56,901 nt of DNA from Pseudomonas phage PAKlein3, in the sequence record PP931173.1. One strand, 5' to 3'. A program made the translations under genes and the position numbers. Shown here one piece after another: positions 26,888-26,979 of this stretch (position 1 is its first letter; each line of letters begins with the position of its first letter). Under the pieces are notes generated by a model that worked only from the letters and a program-made list of their open reading frames with translations, was not told the DNA's origin and ran no database searches.

Positions 26888-26979
26888 TTGACAAGGTGCT
26901 TGCCTTTTGCCCGCCCCGGCCCCAGAATTCGTCTTGTGGTCGGGGCGGTTCCCGACCTAACCAGAAAAGGAGCACTACC
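26888..26979 (+). promoter_or_regulatory. conserved promoter/leader element copy 1: TTGACAAG - GCTTGCCTTTTGCC box - CAGAATTCGTCTT - hairpin - RBS
   Basis: Aligns with 41021-41119 over ~70 nt, including a GGTCGGG-GCGGTT-CCCGACC hairpin at 26938-26957. Confidence 0.55.

Follow-up and report, generated by a model that had tools for sequence, protein, structure and literature searches.

The closest described relatives of the promoters considered here are intergenic repeats of phage YuA. These repeats are credited to Ceyssens et al. 2008. In the GenBank record (NC_010116) five 28-bp repeats are annotated as 'putative sigma70 promoter requiring phage-encoded cofactor'. Nine YuA transcription starts determined by ONT-cappable-seq share the repeat motif (Putzeys et al. 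2024, PMC10914365), with starts found at 2914, 7758, 22676, 29094 and 31134 (Table S3, bioRxiv 10.1101/2023.10.13.562163). For four of the sites 'no activity detected' was reported from a promoter trap in uninfected cells, and a phage factor was suggested (PMC10914365). Here we analysed a box that recurs between the genes of Pseudomonas phage PAKlein3 (sequence record PP931173.1; the window in the following is this whole stretch of 56,901 nucleotides). In our judgement it is quite probable that the box is the extended -35-like element of a lineage-specific promoter class, which would further involve a cofactor, a leader hairpin and an exchangeable cassette as set out below. The promoter kind is already known from YuA, and the Abidjanvirus repeats are a new member of it.

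The window is a circularly assembled or terminally redundant complete Abidjanvirus genome. Bases 1-153 recur at 56749-56901 with 99% identity, and because of this repeat the window represents an entire genome of 56,748 bp with an assembly overlap; a tail gene crosses the junction. Over a 4-kb region around the element under study the identity is 97% to ZC01, 96% to Ab18, Ab19 and Ab20, and 82-83% to PaMx11, Lucjan and AIIMS-Plu-RaNi (RaNi in the following), all of which belong to Abidjanvirus (Bradleyvirinae, Mesyanzhinovviridae). All genes lie on the + strand and the intergenic share of the genome amounts to 6.1%.

The box CTTGCCTT(T/G)TGCC is found at six sites, all of which are intergenic, on the + strand and upstream of + strand genes. 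The sequence CTTGCCTTKTGCC occurs exactly at 11327 (promoter P1), 11438 (P2), 26899 (cassette A) and 41043 (cassette B), with one mismatch at 28950 (P5) and as the variant CTTGCCTTTGTTC at 23982 (P3). An initial inspection of the letters alone, hereafter the sequence-only reading, had claimed at least six intergenic + strand copies, and this was borne out. With up to two mismatches allowed there are nine matches compared to 2.8 expected, a number reached in none of 100 shuffles. A two-block weight matrix separates the six sites, with scores of 26.6-34.8, from Markov shuffles, which at a threshold of 14 gave 0.47 matches per genome. When k-mers were counted without a preset motif, TTGCCTTTT was the top enriched + strand 9-mer genome-wide, at 447 times the expectation. 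Inside the box there is a direct repeat, TTGCC-N2-TTGCC, with a 7-bp period, and the 30 bp upstream of the box sites contain 47-70% A+T compared to 36.6% genome-wide.

In all six copies the box is followed by a hexamer of the form nAnnAT (CAGAAT, GAGAAT, CATAAT or GAAGAT), with 11 free bases in between (10 at 11327). The spacer from TTGCCT to the hexamer thereby measures 17 bp and once 16 bp, which is sigma70-family geometry, and TTGCCT-N18-AGAAT has five matches where 0.41 are expected. The box comprises a -35-like element and the first half of the spacer, and is not a separate site upstream of the promoter. Given the sigma70-type geometry of TTGCCT-17 bp-CAGAAT, the sequence CAGAATTCGTCTT constitutes the -10 element and the start region; the sequence-only reading had placed it in the leader, and it holds the -10 hexamer and the initially transcribed bases instead. 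At the first hexamer position C or G is found where the consensus has T, and A2 and T6 are kept. A-11 and T-7 are invariant across the copies, and several copies carry a TG one base before the hexamer (extended -10). The predicted 5' untranslated regions (UTRs) are 28-53 nt long.

For comparison we collected promoter instances from the window, Ab18, PaMx11, Lucjan, RaNi and two IMG/VR fragments, which gave 38 instances, 34 of them distinct. In the 34 distinct copies, high information content is confined to the 13-bp box and to positions 2, 5 and 6 of the hexamer; in the spacer and the flanks it is near zero. At orthologous sites of genomes that are about 82% identical, box and hexamer are kept and the 11 bases between them are scrambled. 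Judged from these alignments, a kept box and hexamer around a scrambled spacer is the signature expected of a promoter.

When aligned, the YuA repeats read CTTTACTTCTTCGG-N7-CAC-TATACT, i.e. TTTACT-17 bp-TATACT, and counted from the repeat coordinates the YuA starts fall 7-8 nt past TATACT. YuA and the window belong to the same family, Mesyanzhinovviridae, infect the same host, have no phage RNA polymerase (for the window, none among 26 proteins scanned) and use short transcription units. Their repeats share the build of a 13-14-bp block CTT..CTT.T with a -35-like hexamer, followed after 17 bp by a -10-like hexamer. In both phages the repeats are intergenic, co-oriented with the genes and found at the same genomic positions: after ribonucleotide reductase (YuA 7722, window 11327 and 11438), after primase and a small open reading frame (ORF; YuA 22639, window 23982), and between the equivalents of gp03 and gp04 (YuA 2877, window 5610-5650, where the site is degenerate). 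The two classes differ in the box, with CTTGCCTTTTGCC in Abidjanvirus and CTTTACTTCTTCGG in YuA sharing 8 of 13 positions, and in the -10 element, which is (C/G)AGAAT, CATAAT or GAAGAT in Abidjanvirus and a strict CAC-TATACT-T in YuA. The GGTCGGG hairpin leader described below is absent from the YuA repeats, and starts have been mapped for YuA whereas those of Abidjanvirus are sequence predictions. By analogy, the Abidjanvirus repeats are best read as a version of the YuA-type phage-specific promoter class, and they probably need a phage factor. The phage-specific middle or late promoter class of the sequence-only reading thus gains support from the geometry, the conservation over 34 copies and the syntenic repeats of YuA, while its anatomy of the box had to be corrected.

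The distribution of the two box types was followed beyond these phages. Stenotrophomonas phage Sonora carries eight YuA-type boxes, and Epa5 carries variants of the Abidjan type. A search for the exact composite motif in 185,579 genomes returned 54 scattered single matches, roughly the estimated chance number, with none in Pseudomonas, and a motif scan of IMG/VR returned only Abidjanvirus sequences plus one chance match. From the box types of Sonora and Epa5 and the lack of composite matches in Pseudomonas it follows that the box type tracks the phage lineage and not the host, from which we infer a phage-encoded determinant. A literature search with the box sequence and among the papers on Ab18 and ZC01 found no earlier description of these promoters in the genus. 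The Sonora boxes, CTTTACTT(C/T)TTC..-N-TATACTTA, are absent from the annotation of its record and lie at 6813, 10012, 22627, 26937, 27447, 29534 and 35453; several of them are followed by short leader hairpins and an AGAAA(A/T)GGAG ribosome-binding context.

At cassettes A and B the similarity extends past the promoter. The regions 26880-26982 and 41013-41122 are identical across the box and across CAGAATTCGTCTT..GGTCGGGGCGGTTCCCGA, and the duplicated leader with a hairpin was found as the sequence-only reading had described it, with a stem of 7 bp in the first copy and of 8 bp in the second. In all 18 leaders of types A and B GGTCGGG starts 8-9 nt past the hexamer after differing intervening bases, such that the predicted RNA would begin with a purine-pyrimidine followed by the stem. 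This 5' arm is itself invariant in the 18 copies, and the hairpin GGTCGGG...CCCGRYC would start about 2-3 nt from the predicted 5' end of the RNA. Variants with a longer stem (type B, GGTCGGGAG/CTCCTGACC) or a shorter one (type C, GGGTC/GACCC) keep the position of the hairpin. Over the aligned leader stems 91% of the cells are paired, and all changes are one-sided, wobble-compatible and located in the 3' arm (A/G opposite U, C/U opposite G). This one-sided pattern fits a stem in + strand RNA, because six of the seven possible transitions in the 5' arm would break the pairing and six of the seven in the 3' arm keep it. The single C-to-T difference between the two window copies, which had been taken as support for a function at the RNA level, is present and does retain a G-U pair; on its own it is a weak argument, since six of the seven possible 3'-arm transitions keep G-U pairing and two-sided stem changes are lacking. 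As every change is a one-sided wobble change, the support for an RNA role of the leader hairpin is suggestive.

Both leaders precede proteins of about 95 aa, as had been noted, and these two proteins share no detectable similarity. Paralogy of the ORFs at 26980-27273 and 41120-41395 was considered, and the comparison found none; the duplication is limited to the regulatory DNA, the genes being unrelated. Of the 3' hairpin GGCCCGCTCCGGCGGGCC there are exactly two copies, one at 27282-27299 and one at 41403-41420. A shared terminator core had been proposed for the two units, and an identical 18-nt hairpin indeed closes both of them; it lacks a U-tract, so that it may either terminate transcription or only stabilise the 3' end. 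In the region from phoH to the scaffold gene the relatives carry between one and five cassettes before different small ORFs. When the window is aligned with UViG933 (94-96% identical), PaMx11, Lucjan and Ab18, the blocks of homology end at the box (41041/41042) and again just past the 3' hairpin (41420-41428), and from the positions of these junctions we infer recombination at the window cassettes. Rfam 15 gave no match at the gathering threshold across the window, and at E<=1 a single chance-level match within 11000-42500 (41437-41487, - strand). In PaMx11 a cassette remnant reaching from the -10 region to the leader (8804-8881) lies inside the annotated gp11 (8636-9145); this gene call probably starts too far upstream, because the part past the remnant is homologous to the window ORF at 41120-41395.

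Repeated cassettes of this kind have a counterpart in the promoter-early/stem-loop (PeSL) elements of T4-like phages (Arbiol et al. 2010, PMC2839356; Comeau et al. 2014, PMC4122927). In both cases repeated promoter and stem-loop cassettes flank unrelated small ORFs in a hypervariable region, and indels between close relatives start and end in the cassettes. The stem-loop of a PeSL is, however, a terminator upstream of an early sigma70 promoter, whereas the window has its conserved hairpin past the start, within the 5' UTR, and a second hairpin at the 3' end of the unit. An upstream terminator is fused to the box in only one window copy.

We propose that the box would be positioned at about -36 to -24 and that the promoters would be read by the host RNA polymerase. 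The -10 element nAnnAT, 17 bp past TTGCCT, would present the A2 and T6 required by sigma70-family factors, and transcription would start 7-8 nt past the hexamer. Promoters of this kind would stand at the head of short units, which belong to the arm for replication and nucleotide metabolism and, in one case, to the variable region between the phoH-like and the scaffold genes. By analogy with YuA they would probably be weak or silent without a condition supplied by the phage, most likely a phage-encoded cofactor that binds DNA or RNA polymerase and would read the conserved bases beyond the -35 hexamer. The cassette transcript would begin with purine-pyrimidine-GGUCGGG and form a 7-9 bp hairpin 2 nt from its 5' end, a stem-loop that may shield short mRNAs against decay that depends on the 5' end. 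A portable expression cassette would be made up of promoter, 5' hairpin, strong ribosome-binding site, small ORF and 3' hairpin, and its repeated ends would serve as points at which accessory genes are gained, lost or swapped among relatives.

Several parts of this scheme have counterparts in well-known systems. Middle promoters of phage T4 combine a MotA box at about -30 with a sigma70 -10 element and depend on the appropriation of sigma by MotA and AsiA. They resemble the window promoters in that a host sigma70 -10 element is joined to a phage-specific block that replaces or overlaps the -35 element, in front of replication and nucleotide-metabolism genes. Both would depend on a phage factor, the dependence in the window being drawn from YuA only. 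The window differs from T4 in that its box is unrelated, that a scan of 26 proteins found homologues of neither MotA nor AsiA, and that TTGCCT still resembles TTGACA. The 5' UTR of ompA in E. coli carries a 5'-terminal stem-loop that stabilises the mRNA. Similarly, the short mRNAs of the window are predicted to carry a stable hairpin no more than 2-3 nt from their 5' end; judging from the invariant 5' arm, sequence may count here besides structure.

As for the factor itself, Mesyanzhinovviridae phages could redirect the host RNA polymerase by a specificity factor of their own that reads the extended -35 block, with box and factor having co-diverged into at least two types, CTTTACTTCTTCGG/TATACT in Yuavirus and Sonora and CTTGCCTTTTGCC/CAGAAT in Abidjanvirus and Epaquintavirus. 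We hold this view tentatively, somewhat short of an even chance. In a variant of it recognition would need the hypermodified thymines of replicated phage DNA, with the box contributing its five to six T residues as the modified contacts, which would explain without a protein cofactor why the cloned YuA promoters were silent. Proteins were scanned for transcription factors with Pfam (26 proteins) and PHROGs (10 proteins). The candidate factors are a protein with tandem Xre-type helix-turn-helix (HTH) domains and two DUF3489 proteins. The former (21072-21413, 113 aa) has two such domains and a sub-threshold match to Sigma70_r4. Its gene overlaps the start of the primase gene, a position that is kept in YuA (gp25), Sonora and PaMx11, and the protein is annotated as 'putative repressor' although the phages are lytic. 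The second recognition helix of this protein is identical in YuA and Sonora, which have the same box type, and different in the window. The DUF3489-domain proteins (11515-12000 and 27328-27945) are both found in units headed by box promoters.

A number of observations weigh against the lineage-specific promoter class as proposed. No sigma factor, RNA polymerase, MotA or AsiA was found among the 26 proteins scanned, about 50 others lying outside the scan, and no cofactor was identified. The hexamers have no more than 3-5 of 6 positions in common with TATAAT, and TTGCCT agrees with TTGACA in 4 of 6; only one site passes a plain sigma70 scan. The start sites and the timing in Abidjanvirus are predictions. 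With 5 of 13 box positions different and -10 elements of unlike type, homology with the YuA class rests on architecture and synteny. Covariation analysis of the related-phage leaders, suggested by the sequence-only reading, gave no significant signal, the score lying within those of shuffles and double changes inside the stem being absent. The stability of the leader hairpin is ordinary for the GC-rich composition (z = -0.8 and -1.7). Finally, P1, P3 and P5 have no comparable 5' hairpin, which makes the hairpin a trait of a cassette subfamily rather than of the promoter class.

Alternatively, the sites might be ordinary weak host sigma70 promoters without any phage input, the conserved box reflecting recent duplication of the cassette. 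This would account for the exact sigma70-like geometry, the invariant A-11 and T-7, the extended -10 TG of several copies, the A+T-rich upstream sequence resembling UP (upstream promoter) elements, and the site that passes the sigma70 scan. In detail, a plain scan (at least 9/12 to TTGACA/TATAAT with a 16-18 bp spacer) accepts 11328-11355 with 9/12, the other five sites reaching 7-8/12. However, 13 consecutive conserved bases far exceed what sigma region 4 reads, and the box is kept at non-duplicated syntenic sites of genomes that are about 82% identical, with the spacer randomised. The equivalent YuA sites are moreover inactive in uninfected P. aeruginosa, and two genera on the same host differ in their box whereas a Stenotrophomonas phage shares the box of YuA. 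We consider this explanation unlikely. Somewhat better placed, yet still on the unlikely side, is an operator for a phage regulator, i.e. a repressor or an activator near -30, with the tandem Xre-type HTH protein and the DUF3489 proteins as candidates. Such a site would overlap the promoters but owe its definition to the regulator; it is partly compatible with the promoter class favoured here. The repeat TTGCC-N2-TTGCC would suit a monomer with two HTH domains, whose gene keeps its place before the primase and whose recognition helix tracks the box type. In addition, box-like copies without a usable -10 element occur in both arms of a 296-nt inverted repeat, at 3462-3474 on the - strand and at 34868-34880 on the + strand. 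Binding by the candidate regulators is, on the other hand, a prediction from sequence, the differences in the helix follow phylogeny anyway, and an element that is an operator and nothing else would have no use for a hexamer with invariant A2 and T6, always 11 nt away.

A reading of the box as the 3' half of an intrinsic terminator, or as a repetitive extragenic palindromic (REP)-like intergenic repeat, appears highly improbable. At 41025-41052 the box does form the 3' arm and T-tract of a hairpin, GACAAGCGGCC-TTCG-GGCCGCTTGCC-TTTT, and Lucjan shows the same arrangement (6877). This is the only box with a GC-rich hairpin and U-tract, the other five of the six copies being without an adequate upstream stem; the box at 11327 is preceded by the real terminator at a distance of 20 nt, and in Ab18 and UViG933 the orthologous box follows directly past a stop codon with no hairpin. 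A terminator would also leave the conserved hexamer 11 nt downstream unexplained. For the leader, GGTCGGG-N6-CCCGRYC could act as DNA, be it an operator, a roadblock past the start site or a recombination sequence. The invariance of the 5' arm in 18 of 18 copies, the lack of compensatory double changes, the ordinary stability and the coincidence of indel junctions with the cassette edges are in agreement with such an element. Yet the changes are confined to the arm in which G-U pairing is kept in the + strand RNA, the other strand receiving A-C mismatches, and the type B and C variants alter loop and stem length while preserving the distance from the hairpin to the -10 element. An action as DNA seems rather improbable to us. 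Recognition by other sigma factors was considered as well; sigma32 (CTTGAAA/CCCCATnT) and extracytoplasmic function (ECF)-type readings were dropped, as the required bases are unconserved among the copies.

Regarding the individual sites of the favoured promoter class, all on the + strand, P1 (11327-11355) consists of the box CTTGCCTTGTGCC at 11327-11339, a 10-nt remainder of the spacer and the -10 element CATAAT at 11350-11355, with a predicted start at about 11362. It is conserved in Ab18, PaMx11, Lucjan and RaNi and is the first of two tandem promoters that follow the terminator of ribonucleotide reductase (11283-11305). The second, P2 (11438-11491), has its box at 11438-11450, GAGAAT at 11462-11467, a predicted start at about 11474 and a short hairpin GGGTCGGATGTGACCC at 11476-11491, upstream of the DUF3489 gene 11515-12000. 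P1 and P2 are thus arranged in tandem within 11327-11514, 111 bp apart, with one gene downstream, and this arrangement is kept in Ab18, PaMx11, Lucjan, RaNi and one IMG/VR fragment. P1 would add a leader of about 110 nt with a conserved long hairpin GGGTCG...CGACCC, for which Rfam holds no match. P3 starts directly past the stop codon of the small ORF after the primase gene and is syntenic with P010 of YuA; it comprises the variant box CTTGCCTTTGTTC at 23982-23994 and CAGAAT at 24006-24011, with a predicted start at about 24018.

Cassette A (26888-26979) contains TTGACAAG at 26888-26895, the box at 26899-26911 and the -10 element CAGAAT at 26923-26928, with a predicted start at about 26935-26936. 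Its leader carries the hairpin GGTCGGG/CCCGACC at 26938-26957 and the Shine-Dalgarno sequence GGAG at 26969-26972 before the ATG at 26980. The ORF behind it (26980-27273, 97 aa) belongs to PHROG 3633, of unknown function, and the unit is closed by the 3' hairpin GGCCCGC-TCCG-GCGGGCC (27282-27299; -17.8 kcal/mol, z = -2.8), which is followed by TCCATCC in place of a U-tract. In cassette B (41021-41119) the corresponding positions are 41021-41028 for TTGACAAG, 41043-41055 for the box and 41067-41072 for CAGAAT, with a predicted start at about 41079-41080; the leader hairpin CGGTCGGG/CCCGATCG spans 41081-41102 and the ATG lies at 41120. A terminator-like hairpin (41025-41046) continues with its 3' arm into the box and a T-run. 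The ORF (41120-41395, 91 aa) belongs to PHROG 22916, also of unknown function, and homology with the relatives ends right after the second 3' hairpin (41403-41420).

P5 (28950-28998) has the box CTTGCCTTGTGCT at 28950-28962 and GAAGAT at 28974-28979, upstream of a gene at 29014-29232. A perfect inverted repeat of 12-13 bp, TTCGTTGGAAGA/TCTTCCAACGAA (28967-28998, z = -4.0), covers the -10 element and the predicted start. The strong hairpin that the sequence-only reading saw near 29014 is therefore present, with a 13-bp stem, and since it spans the -10 element and predicted start it is not simply a structure in the 5' UTR of its own transcript; it could be an operator. Relatives of P5 keep a TCTTC-N3-4-GAAGA mini-repeat in the same position. 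A seventh, degenerate candidate lies at 5610-5650, where a conserved CTTGCTTTGTGATTGC and a conserved GAAAAT enclose a variable stretch, with TTGCCC-17 bp-GAAAAT as the likely core. It is syntenic with P006 of YuA and is a possible promoter, less certain than the six. A weak candidate upstream of the scaffold gene (41443-41484), conserved in PaMx11 and Lucjan, is formed by a hairpin whose 3' arm is the box-like CTTGCCCTGGGCC (41455-41467), with GATGAT 11 nt further on.

The word TTGACAAG, which the sequence-only reading saw often before the box, precedes it at two of the six sites, plus one TTGACAAA, and is not box-specific. Together with CTTGTCAA it is the top over-represented 8-mer genome-wide, with 15 copies on both strands (11 inside genes, 4 intergenic) compared to 1.1 expected. 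Sites of the over-represented word include 1330, 22885, 28848, 30046, 30648, 33321, 33443, 37474, 40725, 43511, 45188, 51677 and 56319. Its core TTGWCAA is present in 22 copies on both strands compared to 2.4 expected, mostly in genes, where the frame is always xTT-GWC-AAx; the word is enriched in every Abidjanvirus examined and not in YuA. Relatives often have T(C/G)GWCAA at orthologous positions, from which it follows that copies come and go by synonymous changes, which are third-position changes. Many cassette copies, though not all, have TTGACAAG in front of them, at distances that vary, and in no case does the word come with a usable -10 element of its own; we treat it as a separate feature. 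Sigma54 promoters have been shown by experiment for some YuA late promoters, and TTGACAAG-N3-CTTGCC was compared to the sigma54 consensus (TGGCAC-N5-TTGCW). This was ruled out, as GA is found in place of the invariant GG, the copies differ in spacing (N4, N5, N6, N16) and the genome holds 24 matches compared to 25 expected. Use of TTGACA as the -35 element of a second promoter was likewise rejected, as no + strand TTGACA genome-wide has a usable -10 element at 16-18 bp.

Further features of the genome touch on these subjects. The 296-nt inverted repeat mentioned above (3248-3543 and 34799-35094, 82% complementary) has its arms in two large non-coding regions, one before the helicase gene and the other before the gene of the small terminase, and the latter region contains a further inverted repeat of 34 nt (34758-34791 and 34975-35008). 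In the equivalent regions YuA has experimentally active sigma70 promoters. An initiation context (C)AGAAA(A/C)GGAG-N6-8-ATG is common to many genes, the cassette genes included, and is found at 11493, 15632, 17737, 24049, 26958, 28010 and 32140. The stretch 12057-17259 is a thymidine hypermodification cluster with an amino acid:DNA transferase (PF18724) and a 5-hydroxymethyldeoxyuridine (5-hmdU) DNA kinase helical domain (PF18723), and it further holds a thymidylate-synthase-like gene, an acetyltransferase and an HD phosphohydrolase. Because of this cluster the genomic T residues, the T-rich box included, are probably modified. DNA of the Ab18 group is reportedly resistant to EcoRI.

The analysis corrects the reading of the intergenic repeats and gives a first promoter map for Abidjanvirus, therapy candidates such as ZC01 included, with 6-8 sites and predicted starts. 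Two box types on one host, and one type across two host genera, narrow down what lets the host RNA polymerase use promoters of the YuA kind, and the distribution of the box types points to a lineage-specific phage determinant. The compact and portable cassette marks the exchange of accessory genes and is of use when such phages are to be engineered or their variable regions interpreted.

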